Source: Pelagomonas calceolata (taxonomy: Eukaryota). From it: a stretch of DNA of 64,000 nucleotides. The stretch spans positions 4,402,001-4,466,000 of the forward strand of contig CAKKNE010000001.1 in the NCBI GenBank assembly GCA_918797485.1, read 5' to 3'. Below the pieces are notes generated by a model. The model had not been told where the DNA came from and searched no databases. It worked only from the letters and a program-made list of their open reading frames with translations. Positions 48,697 to 63,542 of this stretch are shown here, in pieces (position 1 is the stretch's first letter; every line of letters begins with the position of its first letter). The translations under genes and the position numbers were made by a program.

Positions 48697-51031
48697 ATGG
48701 CGAACCCTATTGTTTGCATCAGCGTCTTAGTACGTCAAAGTGACAGCGCTCTGCGATTTTCGTGCAACCGCGGCAATCAGCGACCGAGGAAAGGCCAGGA
48801 GGCCTGCCTCGCTGATGCTCTGCGCGCGTGACGCGCGGCGGCGCCCTGCAGCAAGCGAGCAGCCACGAGTGGAGCACGCCCGTCGCCGCCGCAGCCCTGC
48901 ACGCATCCACATAAAACATGCAAAAAATCCGCCGCGACCGCCGACCGCCAAAACGCGCGCAGGTCTTCTTCGACATGTCCATCGGCGGCCAGCCGGCGGG
49001 GCGCATCGAGATGACGCTCCGCGCGGACGTCGTCCCGAAGACGGCCGAGAACTTCCGCTGCCTCTGCACGGGCGAGAAGGGTGCCGCGGCCGCGTCCCTC
49101 TTTTCTCAAACAACTCCGTGGCGCAATGGATAGCGTATCAGACTTCGAATCTGGGGGTTGCGGGTTCGAGTCCCGTCGGAGTTGTTTCGCCGATCGCGCG
49201 GCGGCCGTTCAGTATCCGTGGCCGAGTTGGTCTTTCATCTATGATGAACCATGAAGGCGTTGGATTTAAGCCCCAATCTCTTCGGAGGCGTGGGTTCGAA
49301 CCCCACCGGATGCACACATGAACGCCGTCGACGCGACACCGGACGGACTGGAAAATCTGAAGGTCGCGGGTTCGACTCCCGCATCGGTCTCTCCGCGGAT
49401 TGGACTTTGTGCAAGATAGTGTGGCCGAGTGGTTAAGGCGGTAGACTTGAAATCTACTCCCGTAAGGGTCGCAGGATCGATTCTCACAAAATCGATGCGC
49501 GTTCGAACCCTGTCACTATCGCGCACGTTGATGATGTGGCCGAGTGGTCTAAGCTCCTGTGAGCGACCAGAGGCGCTGGTTTTAGGCACCAGTCTTCGGG
49601 CGTGGGTTCGAACCCCACCATCATCACGACAAGTCCTTTCCGCACATTTGTATCCGTGGCCGAGTTGGTCTAAGGCGTTGGATTTAAGCCCCAATCTCTT
49701 CGGAGGCGTGGGTTCGAACCCCACCGGATGCATTTGGACCGATTGGCGCAACGGTAGCGCGTCAGATTCCAGTCCTGAAGGTTACGCGTTCGAATCGCGT
49801 ATCGGTCATAGAGCGCGTGTCGACGGTACGTTCCTACGCAGGCACGGGCCGCTCGGGCAAGCCGCTCTACTTCAAGGGCTCCACCTTCCACCGCGTCATC
49901 ACGGACTTCATGTGCCAGGGCGGCGACTTCACGCGCGGCAACGGTGCCGCGGCCGCGTCCTATGCATATTTGGGGGTGTAGCTCAGTGGCAGAGCGTCCG
50001 CTTTGCATGCGGAAAGCCCAGGGTTCAAACCCCTGCTCCTCCACACACACACAACTCCGTGGCGCAATGGATAGCGTATCAGACTTCGAATCTGGGGGTT
50101 GCGGGTTCGAGTCCCGTCGGAGTTGTTGCTGCTCGACGGCGCGGAGGTGGAGCCTCGCACGCCGAGACCGGGCCGGTCACGCGCGCACGCGCAGGCACGG
50201 GCGGCGAGTCCATCTACGGCGAGAAGTTCGCCGACGAGAACTTCCAGCTCCGCCACACGGGCCCCGGCGTGCTCTCGATGGCCAACGCCGGCCCGGGCAC
50301 GAACGGCTCCCAGTACCGCGGCCGCGTCCTTTCATTCAACTCCGTGGCGCAATGGATAGCGTATCAGACTTCGAATCTGGGGGTTGCGGGTTCGAGTCCC
50401 GTCGGAGTTGTTGCTCGATAGCGTGGTGCGTCTCGACGCACCACGATCTGGACGGACTGGAAATCTGAAGGTCGCGGGTTCGACTCCCGCATCGGTCTTG
50501 CTTGCGGATTGGACTACGATAGTGTGGCCGAGTGGTTAAGGCGGTAGACTTGAAATCTACTCCCGCAAGGGTCGCAGGATCGATTCTCACAAAATCGATG
50601 CGCGTTCGAACCCTGTCACTATCGCGCACAAAGTCCTTTCTGCACATTTGTATCCGTGGCCGAGTTGGTCTTTCGTCTATGACGAGCCACGAAGGCGTTG
50701 GATTTAAGCCCCAATCTCTCCGGAGGCGTGGGTTCGAACCCCACCGGATGCATTTGATACATTTGACCGATGGGCGCCACGGTGGCGCGTCAGACTCCAG
50801 TCCGATGTCAGATTCCAGTCCTCCGAGAGAGCATACAAGGGCAATGTCGACGGTACAATCACACGCAGGTTCTTCCTCTGCACGGTCAAGACCGACTGGC
50901 TCGACGGCAAGCACGTCGTCTTCGGCTCCGTGACCAAGGGCATGGACGTCGTCAAGAAGATCGAGGCCGTCGGCTCGGGGTCCGGCGCGACGGCCAAGCC
51001 GGTCGTCATCACCGACTGCGGCCAGCTCTAA
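48697..51031 (+). CDS. Cyclophilin (PPIase), 171 aa; exons 48697-48711, 48963-49080, 49842-49943, 50195-50312, 50869-51031
   Basis: Four GT-AG introns removed give [89 protein letters not shown]. Confidence 0.95.
49112..49184 (+). tRNA. tRNA-Arg(TCG), copy 1
   Basis: Acceptor AACTCCG/CGGAGTT, anticodon arm TCAGA-CTTCGAA-TCTGG, GGTTCGAGTCC. Confidence 0.93.
49212..49314 (+). tRNA. tRNA-Leu(TAA) with 20-nt D-loop intron (49234-49253)
   Basis: Identical to the intronless copy 49650-49732 once the insert is removed. Confidence 0.88.
49345..49390 (+). tRNA. Orphan 3' half of tRNA-Trp with anti-anticodon leader, copy 1
   Basis: ATCTGAAGGTCGCGGGTTCGACTCCCGCATCGGTC, preceded by GGACTGGA. Confidence 0.6.
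49415..49521 (+). tRNA. tRNA-Ser(TGA) with 26-nt T-arm intron (49476-49501)
   Basis: Acceptor GATAGTG/CACTATC-G, GTAGA-CTTGAAA-TCTAC, long variable arm; GCAGG|TTCGAAC is restored after removing the insert. Confidence 0.88.
49530..49626 (+). tRNA. tRNA-Leu(TAG) with 19-nt D-loop intron (49552-49570)
   Basis: Acceptor GATGATG/CATCATC-A, CTGGT-TTTAGGC-ACCAG; GGTCTA|AGGC is restored after removing the insert. Confidence 0.87.
49650..49732 (+). tRNA. tRNA-Leu(TAA), intronless
   Basis: Acceptor GTATCCG/CGGATGC-A, loop TTTAAGC, variable arm, GGTTCGAACCC. Confidence 0.92.
49737..49808 (+). tRNA. tRNA-Trp(CCA), contiguous, with A31-C39 mismatch
   Basis: Acceptor GACCGAT/ATCGGTC-A, D stem GCGC/GCGC, loop TTCCAGT, T stem ACGCG/CGCGT. 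Confidence 0.8.
49972..50043 (+). tRNA. tRNA-Ala(TGC)
   Basis: G3:U70 identity pair, TCCGC-TTTGCAT-GCGGA, GGTTCAAACCC. Confidence 0.92.
50053..50125 (+). tRNA. tRNA-Arg(TCG), copy 2
   Basis: Identical to 49112-49184. Confidence 0.93.
50338..50410 (+). tRNA. tRNA-Arg(TCG), copy 3
   Basis: Identical to 49112-49184. Confidence 0.93.
50454..50498 (+). tRNA. Orphan 3' half of tRNA-Trp with anti-anticodon leader, copy 2
   Basis: Same as 49345-49390 apart from one A in the leader. Confidence 0.6.
50518..50624 (+). tRNA. tRNA-Ser(TGA) with 26-nt T-arm intron (50579-50604), copy 2
   Basis: Near-identical to 49415-49521 (one variable-loop change). Confidence 0.88.
50650..50752 (+). tRNA. tRNA-Leu(TAA) with 20-nt D-loop intron (50672-50691)
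   Basis: Same body as the other Leu(TAA) copies (one variable-loop change); intron variant TTCGTCTATGACGAGCCACG. Confidence 0.87.
50765..50821 (+). pseudogene. Degenerate 5' half of tRNA-Trp with duplicated anticodon segment
   Basis: GACCGATGGGCGCCACGGTGGCGCGTCAGACTCCAGTCC, then GTCAGATTCCAGTCC again. U8, A14 and A21 are altered and no T arm follows. Confidence 0.6.
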
Positions 51032-56880: not shown

Positions 56881-57233
56881 TATGGCTGCTGGCGAAATAT
56901 GAAATATAGATCCGACAGCAACTGGTGTTGCAATAGGTGCAGCAGGCGTCGCGACAGCCTATGCCTCGTCGATGCCTGTGATGATGCAGCCTTTCGAGCA
57001 TTTTGTTTCAGGGCGCTCGCGCACCGGTATGGAGAGTAGGAGTCCCTCCTCGAGACGCGTGAGAGCCATCCTCGCGGTCGCGCGTGGCGCCCCGCCGGGA
57101 CCATGCCCTCTCCACAGGCGGCAGTGAAGTTACTCGCGGGCACTCAACAGCGACGGAACAGCAAGTCTGGCAATTCCGACATTTGTATATACCACTACAC
57201 GACCATCTCAAAATATACAGCAAGTAGAACATA

Positions 57234-60200
57234 ATGGGGCGTGGTGGCCAGAGGCCCCCGAGCCCTGCCACCCTGGCTGCTATAGTGCCGCCGCTGCGCG
57301 ACGACGAGCTACAGCACTACACGGTCTTAGAAGGAGCGGCCTATGACCTACGAAAGCTCGGCGACCGCCACCCCGGCGGCGCTTTGGCACTAACCTTCGC
57401 GGGCGGCCGGGACCTGAGTCGGACGTGGGCGGGCCTCCACGGCTTCGCGGACCCGCAGAAAACTAGAGCGTGGTTGACGCATATGAGGGTCAGAGACAAG
57501 GAGCTCGAGCGACGCATCGTGCGACGAGCAAAACCAGACGCGTACAGCGAGGGCGATAATGTATCAGCACATCTCGCGCGCATCGAGCGGGAAGCATCGA
57601 GCTTCAATGAATTATCGCAGAAAGGCCGCGTGCCTCCATCAGAACCTCCGTCCCATTTAATAGAGCGCGACTTGGGCGGCGAACTCGGGACGAGGGTGCG
57701 GTGGTTGTTCCGCAGGAAAGCTCATGCATCAAAAACATCATTGAATGCAGCCACGAAGGCGCCCACGGCGTACTGGCCCTGGTTAATTGTAGTAGTGACG
57801 GCCTTCCTCGCGTCCTATGTTTCATGGTGTCGAGGGAGCTACGTCGGGTTGATAGCACTCGGCCCGCTCGGCCAGTTACTAGCCTTCGCGGTGATGCACG
57901 ACGCGTCGCACTACGCCATCTCGACCAAGCGCTGGGTCAACGTCGCGCTGGCCTACGCGGGCGTCGCCTACACGTCGCCGCACGAGTGGACGCTGCAGCA
58001 CGTCCTCGGCCACCACGTCGCGCCGAACGTGGAAGGCGAGGACCCGGACGTCGTCCACGCGCGGCGCTACATGAAAGCATTAACTGGCGTCGGGAAAGCT
58101 TTTGATGCGCTGCTCGTGTGGCTCGTGGCTCTACCGGCAGCCATAACTTTACTGGCACCGGTACGCGTGCGCAAGAACGACGGCGTCTACCCCGCCTCGA
58201 CGGTGCACGAGGGCGAACGAAGTATGATAAGGCACGTGGCGCACTTCGCCGGACGGTTAATACATGCGCTGGCATTCTTCCTCTGGCCCTTCTACGTCTA
58301 CTCACCACTCACAGCGGTAACGTGGGTCTTGATTCCGGCCTGCTCTGGTTCTTTAGTTTTTATGGCCGTGACGCAGGTGGCGCATTTACTGGAGGCCACG
58401 ATCGAGGGGCCCTCGAATGCGCCTCGATCCTGGGCCTCGCAGCAAATTGCGAATGCGTGCGATTTCGCGCCGGACTCGCCGTTAGTTGCGAGATTGACGG
58501 GCGGCCTCAATAGACAAGTGGAGCACCACCTCTTTCCGACCGTGCACCACTCGCACCTACCGGAGCTATCATCTATAGTACAAGATGTCACAAAAAGAAG
58601 AGGCCTGGACCACCACGTCCTGCCGTCCGCCACAAAAGCTCTGGGGGACCACCTCGCGTTCTTGCGGAGCCTCGAGGAGGCGCCTCCATTACCTGTCGTG
58701 TACGACGGTACTGTGGTGCACGCGCGCGCGCCGATTGCCAACGAACCTAGACATCGCTTCTCCGCGTCGCATGCCATGTGGTTATTGCCCTTGGATGATC
58801 CCGAGGCCATGCGCACCCTTGAGAAAGGATGTATCCGGTGGCGCGCCGCGGACCATCTGAGGTCGAGGCCCGGGGAGAGGAAGACACCAAAAGACGTCGC
58901 GGACGCCGTCCGATCTCTCTGTCGGGAACGAGGAGGCTCTTTAAAAAGAGTGGACTCGCCCGATAGTGTGATCAAGCACTTTCAAGGTAGTAGACGTACG
59001 GGCCTCGGTTCGGTCTCACTATTGACGATGCCTCGGACCTTCGGCTACGTCTTCAACCCCATCTCCGTCTACTACGTGAGGGATGCGAATGACAAGCCGG
59101 CCTATGTTGTTTTTGAAGTGTCGAATACGCCTTGGCTGGAAGAAACGCTCTACGTACATCCCGTTAATACAAAAGATACATATGAAGATATGAAGAAGAT
59201 GCACGTGTCGCCCTTCCAGCCCATGGGCCAAATGTACAAGTGGACGGCGCCGTTTCCTTCTGAGAATGTGTCTCTAAGGGTCGACGTGTCGAGAAATGAT
59301 AAGCCGTATTTCGTGGCCACGTTCGACGGTGCCGCGTCGACGGCGCCTTCCACAACATTAGGGAGAGTGCGTACGGCTCTCAAACTGACCCCACATACCG
59401 CCGTCTTGTTAATCCACGCGCACGCCGCCCTCTTACTAGCAAAAGGTGCAAAATTCTACCCTCATCCAAGCGGCGTGAAGACGGCCATGTCGCGATGTAT
59501 CGAGGTGATCTATCATTCGCGGTATCGCTTGTTGGCCTACTACTTGTTGAGACGGTTGCATGCGCCTCAGTACCTCATCGCGACGGCGGCCGTCAGCGTC
59601 TTACAGCGCGCCGCGTCTGTATTGTCAAGGAAAAGTTCATCGAAGAACGTGTCATCAAAGGATACCAAAGATGTACCTTTCGAGATGGTCGAGTCCCCGA
59701 AAAATAACAGTACGCCGATGCTGGCTACTGAGGAGAATTTAGCCGGTAATGCTACTGGAAAGCGCGTCGCCATCATCGGTAGTGGCATTGCGGGCAACGG
59801 TGCTGCTTACTTACTAAAAAAGCGCGGCGTCGACGTCACGGTCTTCGAGGCCTCATCAATACCGGGCGGCCACGCGCTTACGGTCGAGGTCGAGGGCCGT
59901 GCTGTCGACGTGGGCTTCCAGGTCTTCAACCTCGCGAACTACCCGAGACTGTCAAAACTGTTCGATGAACTAGGCGTGCAGCACGTCCAGAGCGACATGA
60001 GCCTGTCGTGTGAGGGCACGCAGTGCTGGTCCTCGAAGAACCCGTTAGTTGGTTGTTTGTTGTCACCAAGCAAACTCTGGCAGCGGTTGTCTTTACTCAT
60101 GGAGATCCTCAAGTTCGAGAAAAAGTGCAAACAGCTCTTGCAGAGTGAAGAAGATCCGTCTTTGTCCATACAAGAATGGTTAAACGAAAATAACTTCTCG

Positions 60201-63200
60201 GAAAGGCTAGCTCGAGAATACTGCGAGCCCATGGTCGGGGCCATCTGGTCGCGTACGCAGGGCGATGTGTTAGATGAGTTTCCGATCTTGGGCGTGGCCC
60301 AGTTTCTGGCGAACCACTACATGCTCGACCGGTCGCGGCCGGCGTGGCGAACGCCGCGGTTAAGATCGCAGGACTACGTTACGAAGTTAGTCGAGAAGGT
60401 CGGGCGGGACGCGTATCGACTATCATCGAGGGTGCGCGCTGTACATAAGGATCGCTCCAATAAGTGGTTAATAGAGTCCGATTCACCGACGGCCCTGGCC
60501 TTCGACGCTGTTATACTCGCGTGCGACGCGCCGACGGCTTCTACCATACTAGGGGACCAGGCGCCGGACCTACTCAAGCAGCTCAAGGTAACGCAAAATG
60601 ATGTCTGTGTCCACCGCGACGCGTCGCTCATGCCTTCTGACAGAAACGCGTGGGCGGCCTGGAACTGCCGGCCGAACGGCGTGTTGACCTACTGGGCGAA
60701 TGTGCTACAGCCCGGTGTCGATGATCAGGACCTGTTTATTACCTTGAATGGATCTACGCCAGCCCCCTTATGGCGGCGGACGTTACAACATCCCGTGCTC
60801 GATGCGGCGTCGCAGAAATGGAGGGAGTCATTACCATCACTCCAGGGGAACGAGGGTATTTATTTTGCCGGCGCCTGGTGCGGCTTCGGCTTCCACGAGG
60901 ACGGCCTCAAATCGGCCTACGATGCTGTGGATGCTTTGTGTGGTACGACGACCCCTATCGCTCGATCACCATTTGTAGCCAGTTCATCCTTGACGAAGAC
61001 GGCTTTAAGATGTGTCTGTCGCGGCGCTCGAGCGCTAGCAGCAAGGACTGCTGATAAAACGAGACCGCGGCCGGAGATCGTCCTGACTTTACCGGAAGGT
61101 CTCGACTTAATAGCGGCCGACGCCGTCTCTAGTAAAGAGAGAGTTGAGGTAAGAATCCTAGACGGACGAGCGGCCTGGCGGTTATTAGCTGATCCGTCGA
61201 TGGGGCTGGCCGAGGGGTACATGGAGGGGAGCCTCGACCTGAAGCCGTCTATTCGAGCTGTGTTACATGCCGCCCTGAAATGTAAAAATAAGGATGCGGG
61301 CGATAGTCCCCAGAACGTGGCGTCGCGATCACTCCTCACAGTCGGCAAGCGGTTCACCGACGTCATCCAACACGCGTTCAACGCCAATACTAAGTCAGGT
61401 AGCTTGAAGAACATCGCGGCGCACTATGATTTGTCCAATGCCTTTTATGAGCTGTGGTTGGATGAAACCCTCACCTACTCCTCAGCTTTGTATGATGACC
61501 ACGAGCCCTACTTACGAAGGGAAGGTTTACTGGTAGATGACGGTCGGAGAGGTACTGTGGACGAAGACGCATCAGACGACGTGTTAGCGGCAGCGCAACG
61601 TAGGAAACTAGATTCATTACTGGACAAGGCCGGCGTGCGCGATGGTGATAGAATACTAGAGATCGGGTGCGGCTGGGGTAGTCTAGCGTTGCGGTGTACG
61701 GAACGCTTCCCGAACTGTGAGTACGTGGCCATCACTATTTCCCGGGAACAGTTGAACGAAGCCTCGCAACGGTTGGAAGGTAAGAGCAATGCCAGGGTCG
61801 TCTTCTGCGACTATCGCGACGCGCGAGACAAGCTGGGCTTGTTCGATCGCGTGCTGTCCTGTGAGATGATCGAGGCCGTCGGCCACGCCTTTTTACCGTC
61901 CTATTTCTCGGCGATCCACGCCTGTCTGAAGGGCGGTGGGTCGGCCTCCCTACAGATCATCACGGTGCCCGACGAACGGTACGCTTCATATATCAAGGGT
62001 AGCGATTTCATCCGGAAGCACGTCTTTCCTGGTTCTTCATTGGTATGTCTGGAAGCCGTAAAAAAAGCCCTGCCGAAGCTAGGCTCTTTAGCTTTAAGGT
62101 TGGACGACGCGGCTACTTTAAGCATGGGCGTATCTTATGCTCGTACCTTACGGGCGTGGCGCGTCCGTTTCGACGCTGTCGAAGACCAGGTATCTAAGCT
62201 CGGTTTTGATGACGTCTTCGTCAGGAAGTGGAGGTATTATCTGGACTACTGCGAGGCGGGCTTCGCGTGTGGTCATATCGACGTGAAGCAGATACGACTC
62301 GAGAAGACGGACGAAAGCCTTGCGAGAGAAGCGACGGAGGGCGCCCATGGTTCGAAACCCATCTCGGTGAAGGATATGACTATCAAGGCCGTGAAGGGCG
62401 TGGCCACTACGGCCTTTGAGCGAGGCTTACTGCCGGATTTCGTGACGCGGTATGGGATAAGACAGCTCTCGGCGCAGCAACTGAGGCACTGCGACGACGC
62501 CGGTCGCGCAGCCAACAACGGCGAGGCGGGCTTGGCTGGTAGTCAAGAGAAGCTCCGGGAGACCATCCAGGCTTTGTTGGAAGCGCCGGTAGCAGTATGT
62601 ACGTCCGAGGCGAACGAGCAGCACTACGAAGTCGACGCGCGCTTCTACGGGCTGTGTCTGGGGCCCCATAGGAAGTACTCTGCTTGTTTATATGAAGGGG
62701 CGGAGCCGAAGTGGCCCGGGAACAAACTGCAAAAAGACGCGGCTCGGTTACTGCCAAAGGCGGAAAAGGATTCATTAGATCAAGTCGCGGCTCGCGGCGA
62801 CATCACGCAGGCCACGAAAGCTATCTTAGATTGCGGCTGCGGCTGGGGGTCGGCCTCGCTGTACTTGGCGGATAGATTCCGGAACGCCCAGGTGGTAGGT
62901 GTCTCGAATTCTCATTCCCAGAGAAGGTACATCATGGGCCAGGCTCAAGAACGAGGATTGACGAACCTGCAGATTGTGACACTGGATTTGTCGAAGGAGC
63001 CTCTCACAAAAGCCTTGGACGCGTTGCAGAGTCGACTGCCGGGCCAGTATTTCGAGCGCGGCGTCTCGATAGAGATGTTCGAGCACATGAAGAATTATAA
63101 GGCATTATTTGAGAAGATCACGGCGGTACTACAGGACCAGGGCCGCTTCTTCGTGCACGTGTTCTGCCACCGGCAGTACGCGTACCACTTCGTGGCCAAG

Positions 63201-63542
63201 TCCGACGCGGACTGGATGGCCAAGTACTTCTTCGCGGGCGGTACCATGCCTTCGGCCGATTTATTTGTTCATTTTGCGGCGCGGAAAGATGCGCCCGTCG
63301 CGCTCGTGGACCACTGGCGGAACAGCGGCGTGCATTACGCGTTGACGGCGGAAGGCTGGCTCCAGAACATGGACGCCAACGCGGCGGAAGTCAGAGAGAT
63401 ATTAAAGGAGGCCTACCCTGAAAATGAGACGGAGCTCTGGTTCCACCGCTGGCGCGCCTTTTACCTCGCGTGCGTCGAACTCTTCGGCTACGACGGCGGC
63501 CAGGAGTGGTGCATCGGGCACTACCTCTTCGAGAAGCGGTGA
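57234..63542 (+). CDS. 2102-aa six-domain fatty-acid-modifying fusion: cyt b5, desaturase, DUF1365, FAD oxidoreductase, CFA-type methyltransferase, second SAM methyltransferase
   Basis: HPGG; HDASH / HVLGHH / QVEHHLFP; YDGTVVHAR..FGYVFNPIS..KKMHVSPF; IIGSGIAG..GAWCGFGFHEDG; NIAAHYDLSN..LEIGCGWG..WRYYLDYCEAGF; ANEQHYEV..LDCGCGWG..SIEMFEHMKNY..ELFGYDGGQEW. Confidence 0.93.
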   Translation: MGRGGQRPPSPATLAAIVPPLRDDELQHYTVLEGAAYDLRKLGDRHPGGALALTFAGGRDLSRTWAGLHGFADPQKTRAWLTHMRVRDKELERRIVRRAKPDAYSEGDNVSAHLARIEREASSFNELSQKGRVPPSEPPSHLIERDLGGELGTRVRWLFRRKAHASKTSLNAATKAPTAYWPWLIVVVTAFLASYVSWCRGSYVGLIALGPLGQLLAFAVMHDASHYAISTKRWVNVALAYAGVAYTSPHEWTLQHVLGHHVAPNVEGEDPDVVHARRYMKALTGVGKAFDALLVWLVALPAAITLLAPVRVRKNDGVYPASTVHEGERSMIRHVAHFAGRLIHALAFFLWPFYVYSPLTAVTWVLIPACSGSLVFMAVTQVAHLLEATIEGPSNAPRSWASQQIANACDFAPDSPLVARLTGGLNRQVEHHLFPTVHHSHLPELSSIVQDVTKRRGLDHHVLPSATKALGDHLAFLRSLEEAPPLPVVYDGTVVHARAPIANEPRHRFSASHAMWLLPLDDPEAMRTLEKGCIRWRAADHLRSRPGERKTPKDVADAVRSLCRERGGSLKRVDSPDSVIKHFQGSRRTGLGSVSLLTMPRTFGYVFNPISVYYVRDANDKPAYVVFEVSNTPWLEETLYVHPVNTKDTYEDMKKMHVSPFQPMGQMYKWTAPFPSENVSLRVDVSRNDKPYFVATFDGAASTAPSTTLGRVRTALKLTPHTAVLLIHAHAALLLAKGAKFYPHPSGVKTAMSRCIEVIYHSRYRLLAYYLLRRLHAPQYLIATAAVSVLQRAASVLSRKSSSKNVSSKDTKDVPFEMVESPKNNSTPMLATEENLAGNATGKRVAIIGSGIAGNGAAYLLKKRGVDVTVFEASSIPGGHALTVEVEGRAVDVGFQVFNLANYPRLSKLFDELGVQHVQSDMSLSCEGTQCWSSKNPLVGCLLSPSKLWQRLSLLMEILKFEKKCKQLLQSEEDPSLSIQEWLNENNFSERLAREYCEPMVGAIWSRTQGDVLDEFPILGVAQFLANHYMLDRSRPAWRTPRLRSQDYVTKLVEKVGRDAYRLSSRVRAVHKDRSNKWLIESDSPTALAFDAVILACDAPTASTILGDQAPDLLKQLKVTQNDVCVHRDASLMPSDRNAWAAWNCRPNGVLTYWANVLQPGVDDQDLFITLNGSTPAPLWRRTLQHPVLDAASQKWRESLPSLQGNEGIYFAGAWCGFGFHEDGLKSAYDAVDALCGTTTPIARSPFVASSSLTKTALRCVCRGARALAARTADKTRPRPEIVLTLPEGLDLIAADAVSSKERVEVRILDGRAAWRLLADPSMGLAEGYMEGSLDLKPSIRAVLHAALKCKNKDAGDSPQNVASRSLLTVGKRFTDVIQHAFNANTKSGSLKNIAAHYDLSNAFYELWLDETLTYSSALYDDHEPYLRREGLLVDDGRRGTVDEDASDDVLAAAQRRKLDSLLDKAGVRDGDRILEIGCGWGSLALRCTERFPNCEYVAITISREQLNEASQRLEGKSNARVVFCDYRDARDKLGLFDRVLSCEMIEAVGHAFLPSYFSAIHACLKGGGSASLQIITVPDERYASYIKGSDFIRKHVFPGSSLVCLEAVKKALPKLGSLALRLDDAATLSMGVSYARTLRAWRVRFDAVEDQVSKLGFDDVFVRKWRYYLDYCEAGFACGHIDVKQIRLEKTDESLAREATEGAHGSKPISVKDMTIKAVKGVATTAFERGLLPDFVTRYGIRQLSAQQLRHCDDAGRAANNGEAGLAGSQEKLRETIQALLEAPVAVCTSEANEQHYEVDARFYGLCLGPHRKYSACLYEGAEPKWPGNKLQKDAARLLPKAEKDSLDQVAARGDITQATKAILDCGCGWGSASLYLADRFRNAQVVGVSNSHSQRRYIMGQAQERGLTNLQIVTLDLSKEPLTKALDALQSRLPGQYFERGVSIEMFEHMKNYKALFEKITAVLQDQGRFFVHVFCHRQYAYHFVAKSDADWMAKYFFAGGTMPSADLFVHFAARKDAPVALVDHWRNSGVHYALTAEGWLQNMDANAAEVREILKEAYPENETELWFHRWRAFYLACVELFGYDGGQEWCIGHYLFEKR

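Follow-up and report, generated by a model that had tools for sequence, protein, structure and literature searches.

Candidate bulge-helix-bulge introns at non-canonical tRNA positions within spliceosomal introns of a stramenopile cyclophilin gene

Three kinds of insert in leucine and serine tRNA genes of the window (the whole 64,000-nucleotide stretch of DNA analysed) are probably independent non-canonical tRNA introns, likely cut under the guidance of bulge-helix-bulge (BHB) structure and carried in a multi-tRNA cassette that would be processed from the intron RNA of a host gene. The BHB reading of the three inserts, which draws on comparison between loci, is strongly supported. Ectopic BHB introns in a stramenopile did not turn up in the literature searched; as such introns are already known from eukaryotes, the novelty lies in the lineage and, more so, in the intron-hosted cassette. 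The inserts would add a stramenopile, from a culturable group of abundant ocean algae, to the red-algal nuclei in which structure-guided tRNA splicing is known. The assignment to a stramenopile nucleus, made in the initial annotation, is consistent with the presence of spliceosomal introns and with pelagophytes as the nearest named TPI relatives.

Inserts and their geometry

All window features given here lie on the plus strand. The first copy of tRNA-Leu(TAA) (49212..49314) carries a 20-nt insert at 20b/21 (49234-49253), and the second (50650..50752) carries its insert at 50672-50691. tRNA-Ser(TGA) likewise occurs twice, at 49415..49521 with a 26-nt insert at 53/54 (49476-49501) and at 50518..50624 with an insert at 50579-50604; tRNA-Leu(TAG) (49530..49626) holds 19 nt at 21/22 (49552-49570). 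The places, helices and bulges that the initial annotation had given for these inserts were all found as claimed, and its statement that removing them restores the tRNA also held, with all five genes receiving the expected ARAGORN call after excision by script. Standard scanners fail on the unspliced genes, three of the five being missed and two mis-called as Thr or Ala; we rejected the Thr and Ala calls, with their 10-nt introns, and the long-intron calls as artefacts. After excision, copy 1 of Leu-TAA is identical (83/83) to an intronless tRNA-Leu(TAA) in the same cluster (49650..49732), and copy 2 matches it at 82 of 83 positions. The inner helix of copy 2 shows an A-U to G-C change relative to copy 1.

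Cuts after the second base of the two 3-nt bulges fit one register only in the Ser, Leu-TAG and Leu-TAA genes, and when equivalent cut registers were compared the central helix was complete (4/4) in the BHB register alone. A complete central helix with at least three inner pairs arose in 123 and 118 of 20,000 shuffles of the two window Leu-TAA inserts, in 78 of 20,000 for the window Leu-TAG insert (scored on metagenome locus L006) and in 4 of 20,000 for the window Ser insert (scored on L020). Describing these structures as relaxed was correct: the exonic outer helix h next to the bulge measures 0 bp in Ser and 1 bp in Leu, which departs from the strict hBHBh' motif and corresponds to the relaxed HBh' type. 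Whole-gene minimum-energy folds of unspliced sequence lacked the BHB for several copies, and single-sequence folding was not counted as support. TSEN would very probably cut each bulge behind its second base, with a ligase joining the exons, and the inserts would probably be removed once the tRNAs have been freed from the intron of the host gene.

Ectopic tRNA introns of this sort are also known from the Guillardia nucleomorph. In Cyanidioschyzon merolae, according to the available text of Soma et al. 2013 (PMC3728597), nuclear tRNA introns form strict or relaxed BHB motifs and their splicing was shown by RT-PCR, and Chondrus crispus has ectopic BHB introns at 20/21 and 58/59 (PlantRNA 2.0, 10.1101/2021.12.21.473619). 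As far as the available text describes them, both algae resemble the present case in having short introns with BHB motifs in the D-loop or T-arm of nuclear tRNA genes. The present genes differ from those of Chondrus in insert position, and from those of both algae in belonging to a pelagophyte-like stramenopile and in sitting in multi-tRNA cassettes inside spliceosomal introns. The available text of PMC3728597 also gives C. merolae tRNA genes TATA-like upstream elements and T-stretch terminators, unlike the cassettes here, and where it documents splicing by RT-PCR, the BHB introns here are candidates recognised by their geometry in sequence. Archaeal non-canonical BHB introns (Crenarchaeota and Thaumarchaeota, as portrayed in the available part of the tRNAscan-SE 2.0 paper, PMC8450103) share the 4-bp helix, the two 3-nt bulges, the exact restoration of the tRNA by the cuts and the relaxed HBh' form; the present inserts, in contrast to these, are in eukaryotic nuclear genes, and the likeness rests on structure.

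Variation among related algae

The inserts were compared across 28 metagenome loci from related algae, which count as related copies and not as independent events. All 14 distinct Ser inserts and all 8 Leu-TAA inserts kept the BHB geometry, as did 12 of 13 Leu-TAG exon-plus-insert variants, and all four pairs of the central helix were present in 30/30 Ser genes, 26/27 Leu-TAG genes and 9/9 insert-bearing Leu-TAA genes. Insert lengths ranged from 19 to 29 nt, with an inner helix of 3-7 bp that begins directly after the bulge. Ser and Leu-TAG exons are nearly invariant and their inserts have diverged, the inner helix h' being kept through compensatory change across the metagenome loci. Covariation in Leu-TAG was scored on 10 equal-length inserts of 12 distinct ones (the 23- and 25-nt inserts were omitted): 98.8% of cells were paired, three of the four inner pairs had changed on both sides, and the score of 0.300, against 0.065±0.036 for shuffled inserts, was reached by none of 500 shuffles. 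Slid registers were only 29-54% paired; the count of covarying pairs alone was equalled by 65 of 500 shuffles. Central helices yield no two-sided covariation because they hardly vary. The 3' bulge dinucleotide is variable in both Leu genes, with three forms in Leu-TAG and four in Leu-TAA; the Ser insert ends in G (3' bulge CG in 14/14), so the B box is kept. A search of viral contigs for the Ser-insert pattern gave no matches.

The earlier interpretation had two parts. Its BHB reading is strongly supported by geometry that is kept, with compensatory inner-helix changes, across loci; its second part, that the tRNA splicing endonuclease recognises the BHB rather than measuring from the tRNA body, we infer.

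The insert was present in 27 of the 27 Leu-TAG genes seen, and 8 of the 17 Leu-TAA genes seen were intronless; the Ser scan pattern required the insert, so intronless Ser-TGA genes could not show up. It is improbable that the insert-bearing genes are dead copies whose hairpins spread with a duplicated cassette, with intronless genes elsewhere supplying the tRNAs. The intronless Leu-TAA genes would suit such a history, as would the repetition of the cassette with decayed members (L016, L007 and position 50765 in the window) and the lack of a spliced read among the matches listed. Dead hairpins, however, would not retain 3-nt bulges or pairing with the exon, and here diverging inserts hold the exact BHB register at three places beside exons that scarcely change; the listed DNA-run matches described below also argue against it.

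tRNA cassettes in host introns

All of these tRNAs sit within introns 2-4 of a cyclophilin gene (48697..51031; exons 48697-48729, 48963-49080, 49842-49943, 50195-50312 and 50869-51031), whose joined exons form an open frame of 177 aa with a match to PF00160 in the last exon. Intron 2 (49081..49841, 761 nt) has a shared donor motif at its 5' end and carries, in order, Arg, insert-bearing Leu-TAA, a Trp-like 3' half, insert-bearing Ser and Leu-TAG, the intronless Leu-TAA and Trp. Intron 3 (49944..50194, 251 nt) holds Ala-TGC (49972-50043) and Arg-TCG (50053-50125), and intron 4 (50313..50868, 556 nt) holds Arg, a Trp-like 3' half, insert-bearing Ser and Leu-TAA, and a degenerate Trp 5' half. The intronless tRNA-Arg(TCG) of intron 2 (49112..49184) has copies at 50053-50125 and 50338-50410. 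A long-range stem, with its left arm at 49395..49406 paired to 49632-49643, brackets the insert-bearing Ser and Leu-TAG genes, and a second such pair joins 50504-50515 with 50632-50643; the stem was considered as a further BHB and rejected, its loop being symmetric by inspection. The cyclophilin-intron setting, the intronless Leu-TAA in the cluster and the orphan Trp half were absent from the initial annotation.

The same cassette occurs in introns of other genes. Flanking reading frames identify an SBF transporter (profile positions 3-36, then 40-178 across the intron), a cold-shock/CCCH protein, an SSF symporter (below the cut-off) and an unnamed Lys-rich protein, and the 3' flank only points to L24e and TRM13; host assignment across the cassette is weakened for metagenome loci that are chimeric there (L026, L010, perhaps L014). 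Wherever a host frame was identified, the cassette lay on its sense strand. The donor motif had 22 distinct matches in 143,029 bases, all on the tRNA strand; in 20 of these an A-box follows 15-27 nt later, and in the remaining two a tRNA comes at a greater distance. Together, recurring sense-strand cassettes, a shared donor motif and few T-run terminators suggest that the tRNAs are processed from Pol II introns, a conclusion to which we give about an even chance; RNase P and RNase Z may equally well free them from such an intron as not, in place of separate Pol III transcripts. If so, tRNA supply would be tied to transcription and splicing of the host gene, and the cassettes make tRNA production from pre-mRNA introns directly testable.

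snoRNAs are intron-encoded small RNAs, and the cassette tRNAs resemble them in lying within a spliced intron on the host's sense strand. For transcription signals of their own the picture is mixed: at least four T occur in just 9 of 113 distinct 25-nt tRNA 3' flanks (against 3.9% of background windows), yet A and B boxes are intact in the cassette DNA, which leaves room for Pol III transcription. Pelagophyte introner elements are reportedly the subject of Huff et al. 2016. Introner elements of pelagophytes are also named in the available text of PMC9481584; as with these, introns of unrelated genes here share 5' sequence and cargo, which suggests copying, but they differ in spanning 251-761 nt with tRNA cargo and in having positions common to more than one species.

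Less probable, though with appreciable weight, is an arrangement in which the BHB introns are real and spliced and the cassettes act as Pol III polycistronic units whose place within introns is incidental, the donor motif 25-45 nt upstream doubling as a Pol III element and the unit being tolerated as a spliceable intron. The intact boxes, including the B box kept by the terminal G of the Ser insert, would serve such a unit, and the donor motif occupies the place expected for TFIIIB binding, with a T/A-rich spacer after it. Intronic tRNAs of C. elegans are Pol III genes, 56% of them sense (Sagi et al. 2016, PMC4999229, available text), whereas every identified host here shows a single orientation; the scarcity of terminators, a T4 inside Leu-TAG itself and spacers of just 4-24 nt between several neighbouring tRNAs also tell against Pol III units. 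Algal and plant tRNA genes do not always have T-stretches (PlantRNA 2.0, 10.1101/2021.12.21.473619). As described in the available text of PMC4999229, the C. elegans genes share with ours their location in host introns and a conserved tRNA-host pairing, and differ from our sense-strand clusters, which have a common donor motif in front of them and, for the most part, no terminators; splicing of a tRNA out of pre-mRNA is deemed there only theoretically possible.

Transcription and splicing

Reads from one polyA raw run, two metatranscriptome contig sets and one DNA set were compared with the homologous locus L008 only, which has no Leu-TAA insert, so that Ser and Leu-TAG were covered. At this locus cyclophilin introns 2-4 are spliced out in RNA: 1409 polyA reads continue from exon 3 into exon 2 letters, 975 continue from exon 4 into exon 5 letters, and the intron 3 joint is carried by 1517+9 polyA reads and by contigs of two metatranscriptomes and is absent from the DNA run. 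Ser and Leu-TAG have ~90-fold polyA coverage on the sense strand and none antisense, and some polyA reads connect neighbouring tRNAs. PolyA depth stays level over the Ser insert (83-87), with reads crossing the inserts unspliced, as expected because such reads are precursors; polyA libraries are without mature tRNA and ill-suited to detecting spliced tRNA. Among the L008 matches listed, which leave out 6 joints, 23 indels and 104 loose ends, no joint spanned the Ser or Leu-TAG insert in the polyA, metatranscriptome or DNA sets, and those from the DNA run included none for an intronless Ser or Leu-TAG. For a splicing test it is Ser-TGA and Leu-TAG that carry information; reads of spliced Leu-TAA copy 1 are uninformative because of the identical intronless copy in its cluster.

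Separately, in metatranscriptome set X16, depth within the Ser insert was 100-126, about half that of exon 1 (230). A spliced product, diverged inserts or other organisms could each produce this dip, which we do not count as evidence.

A candidate permuted tRNA-Trp

The orphan Trp-like 3' half of intron 2 (49345..49390; positions 38-73 at 49355-49390, with U73) carries a leader whose sequence complements the anticodon and trailer of tRNA-Trp(CCA) farther downstream (49737..49808), a contiguous gene with an A31-C39 mismatch whose 5' half is also the orphan's partner. A second such half with leader lies at 50454..50498 (38-73 at 50463-50498), upstream of a Trp 5' half that has no 3' half adjoining it (50765..50800) and in which the D-arm is mutated (U8, A14, A21) and the acceptor and anticodon strands are kept. 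A 3' half precedes a complementary 5' half on one transcript, 241-362 nt apart in loci long enough. Pairing between the two halves, which with the long-range stem would fold the cassette, is rather likely; that the folded halves yield a mature permuted tRNA is doubtful. Two other readings were rejected: the leader as an anticodon loop (Ser-GGA or Pro-TGG), since it differs between loci, and a Trp intron spanning cyclophilin exons 3-4, since the intron 2 orphan half has no upstream 5' half in the window.

On a less likely reading the two halves form a true circularly permuted tRNA-Trp with a 37/38 junction, whose 241-362-nt intervening sequence would be a pair or trio of other tRNAs. The T-stem of the orphan half is fully paired in 28 of 28 copies, in five covarying versions, and the half restores the A31-U39 pair missing from the contiguous Trp. 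In the leaders listed, position -3 is a purine in 28/28, which would permit an anticodon-intron pair. Of 19 distinct loci, 17 have a predicted pairing of 0.92 or above between the orphan anticodon strand and the 5' half, and all 19 give a joined product called as Trp. L004 has an intact Trp 5' half with no 3' half adjoining it. Other features disagree with permutation. The leader/trailer junction forms no BHB, its bulge varying in size, and shows only the purine at -3 and the anticodon-leader helix. A73 is a eukaryotic Trp identity base, and position 73 is U in 28/28 orphan halves against A in 30/30 contiguous Trp genes. G-U pairs occur at 1:72 or 7:66 in 5/28 orphan halves, no more than 11 of the 19 distinct loci have acceptor pairing predicted at 0.6 or above, and the partner's D-arm is broken in window intron 4 and in L007. 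Contiguous Trp is abundant in both DNA and RNA, and the L008 matches listed from the same read sets included no back-spliced, circular or 37/38-joined Trp.

Rather unlikely in our judgement is the fullest account, in which pelagophyte nuclear tRNAs come, in the manner of snoRNAs, from polycistronic Pol II-intron cassettes that a copied intron family takes into unrelated genes, with a permuted Trp around two or three tRNAs interrupted by archaeal-type BHB introns; if true, it would place three nested levels of splicing within one intron. Known type II permuted genes (37/38) have intervening sequences of 1-74 nt, with no Trp among the 34 listed in the available part of PMC3978253 (Soma 2014). 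As described there, they share with the Trp candidate an upstream 3' half and complementary leader and trailer; the candidate departs from them in its 241-362 nt with whole tRNAs, a junction without BHB, and U73. Its duplicated half resembles the tandem-duplication model set out in that text, and the candidate together with this half matches the intermediate expected under the model.

Conserved inserts in tRNA genes

Every tRNA gene that our analysis detected in the 64-kb window (GC ~63%) lay within 49111–50752, and the three inserts sat where the initial annotation had placed them; they occur in two Leu-TAA genes at 20b/21, one Leu-TAG gene at 21/22, and two Ser-TGA genes at 53/54. As had also been claimed, in silico excision restored the tRNA in 5/5 genes, and Leu-TAA copy 1 then matched the intronless gene at 49650–49732 at 83/83 bases. 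A single metagenome scan, with a pattern requiring the Ser insert, returned 28 loci, which host exon identity assigns to several related algae: cyclophilin exons were 93–100% identical to those of the window, while between loci SSF exons were identical at 324/429 and SBF exons at 331/394 positions.

Across these loci and the window, the 4-bp central helix of the bulge-helix-bulge (BHB) was fully paired in 30/30 Ser genes (14 distinct inserts), 26/27 Leu-TAG genes (13 variants; the exception, locus L016, had 3/4), and 9/9 insert-bearing Leu-TAA genes (8 distinct); 8 more Leu-TAA genes were intronless. Since the loci are related copies, these counts are not independent events. Inner helices spanned 3–7 bp and outer helices 0–1 bp, bearing out the relaxed form with a weak outer helix described earlier. 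When each insert was shuffled 20,000 times, between 3 and 123 of the shuffles produced a 4/4 helix with at least three inner pairs; just one of the equivalent cut registers gave 4/4. Among 10 equal-length Leu-TAG inserts (2 of 12 were excluded by length), the central helix was invariant and the inner helix showed two-sided changes at 3/4 pairs; the covariation score (0.300 vs. 0.065) was matched by 0/500 shuffles, the count of covarying pairs alone by 65/500. Conserved geometry and inner-helix covariation thus support the BHB interpretation well, with splicing still putative at the RNA and enzyme levels.

These are introns of a known kind in a new lineage, at new positions. Nuclear ectopic BHB introns are in print for C. 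merolae (PMC3728597, accessible text), and others have been described in Chondrus crispus (10.1101/2021.12.21.473619) and, in accessible text, the Guillardia nucleomorph; the accessible part of a 2026 review covers those three organisms and green-algal permuted genes, and no others. The word "tRNA" is absent from the main text of the P. calceolata genome paper, and the Aureococcus announcement gives only a tRNA count. In the freely accessible literature, searched mainly through listings, we found no report of stramenopile BHB introns or of tRNA cassettes processed out of spliceosomal introns, an origin of tRNA that Sagi et al. (PMC4999229, accessible text) consider theoretically possible.

A recurring cassette in host introns

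More unusual than the introns themselves are the recurring intron-hosted cassettes, a setting overlooked by the initial annotation. The window tRNAs occupy introns 2 (49081–49841), 3 (49944–50194), and 4 (50313–50868) of a plus-strand cyclophilin gene whose five exons form an open 177-aa frame. On the homologous metagenome locus L008, reads reveal splicing of each of the three introns: one GT-AG joint is carried by 1517+9 polyA reads and by contigs of two metatranscriptomes and is absent from DNA, and at the other two introns 1409 and 975 reads continue into the letters of the adjacent exon. The core order (Ala, Arg, an orphan Trp half, insert-bearing Ser and Leu-TAG, optional Leu-TAA, Trp) is repeated in introns of other genes, whose flanking frames indicate an SBF transporter, a cold-shock/CCCH protein, an SSF symporter (below cut-off), L24e, and TRM13 (from the 3' flank alone). 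A Pfam scan of 17 flanks left 7 without a match. The two flanks make a single frame for cyclophilin, SBF (L007), cold-shock (L015), SSF (L017), and, in L019, a Lys-rich protein; both L026 and L010 are chimeras across the cassette.

Other introns of the same host genes carry Arg-CCT, Arg-TCT, Arg-TCG, Ala, and Trp behind a similar donor motif (oriented positions: L021, 950–1800; L015, 2760–3200; L002, 300–1000; L022, 1700–2130), and the cargo of cyclophilin introns 3 and 4 in Arctic-type loci differs from the window's. In the cold-shock gene, the cassette intron has a GC donor at L001 2099 and L021 185 (oriented) and GT in L015. Close to the 3' ends of introns 2 and 4 (49818–49828, 50845–50855), a branch-point-like word precedes bases complementary to the first six of the donor, which could be a remnant terminal repeat. 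In L009, L011, and L018, the Arg-TCG upstream of the orphan half has a decayed T-arm and the remaining cassette is intact.

Transcription and processing

Sense polyA depth on L008, where reads may derive from several cassette copies, was ~90-fold over Ser and Leu-TAG vs. 1350–2400 over exons, with zero antisense reads over either tRNA; depth stayed flat across the Ser insert, and some reads joined neighbouring tRNAs. These reads cross the inserts unspliced, as precursors would. Since no joint spanning the Ser or Leu-TAG insert was among those listed for L008, and polyA libraries represent precursors rather than mature tRNA (the read filter also discards some reads), we infer BHB splicing from conservation. 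In run X21, mapped to L008, polyA reads contained neighbour pairs foreign to that locus (Arg-Leu-TAG, Arg-Arg, Trp-Trp, Arg-Trp), all sense, and therefore point to further cassette variants in the organism.

The cassette is most likely borne on the host pre-mRNA or excised intron. To the observed geometry, intron location, and precursor reads we add inferred enzyme steps: each tRNA would fold, and the tRNA splicing endonuclease would cut the BHB motifs without measuring to 37/38, because that ruler, as established for the yeast enzyme, does not extend to sites in the D-loop or T-stem; RNase P and RNase Z would separate the units by trimming. A Pol III polycistron is the main rival, given the intact A and B boxes and a donor motif placed where an upstream Pol III element is expected. 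This motif, which ends in CGTCC and marks the cassette introns, gave 22 distinct matches over 143,029 bases, every one on the tRNA strand, with an A-box 15–27 nt downstream in 20. Four or more T occurred in only 9/113 distinct tRNA 3' flanks; Leu-TAG (49530–49626) has a T4 run within its anticodon arm that could stop Pol III.

Trp halves

A Trp-like 3' half (window 49345–49390 and 50454–50498) lies upstream of Ser in 28/28 cases where the stretch is covered. Its T-stem is completely paired and occurs in five covarying versions. Next after this half comes a left stem arm whose matching right arm follows Leu-TAG or Ser. In 17/19 distinct loci, the predicted structure has the orphan pairing through its leader and anticodon strand with the Trp 5' half downstream, and the joined halves were called Trp in 19/19. 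This layout is that of a type II permuted gene, though the halves are 241–362 nt apart vs. 1–74 nt in 34 known cases (PMC3978253, accessible text). A true permuted tRNA-Trp nevertheless seems rather unlikely: the junction has no BHB motif, position 73 is U in every orphan vs. A in all 30 contiguous Trp genes, two partner 5' halves have a broken D-arm, contiguous Trp is abundant, and no back-splice joint was among those listed for L008. More probably, the orphan stems from a duplicated Trp gene and serves as a scaffold for folding or processing. DNA contig depth on L008 (640–1010 on contiguous Trp vs. 15–40 on adjoining stretches), which is not equivalent to copy number, hints that contiguous Trp is many-copied.

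All 30 listed copies of contiguous Trp (window 49737–49808 and 29 in loci) share an A31-C39 mismatch. The decayed 5' halves (window 50765–50822, and after Leu-TAA in L007) keep their acceptor and anticodon strands, and in the window copy the anticodon strand carries an 18-nt tandem duplication.

Elsewhere in the window, the nearest named relatives of the triosephosphate isomerase are pelagophytes (Chrysophaeum, 69%; Aureococcus, 62–65%), which suggests a Pelagomonas-like member of that group. A plus-strand open frame of 2104 codons (57228–63542) joins cytochrome b5-like, fatty-acid desaturase, DUF1365, amine-oxidase, cyclopropane synthase, and methyltransferase domains, an unusual fusion for lipid modification.
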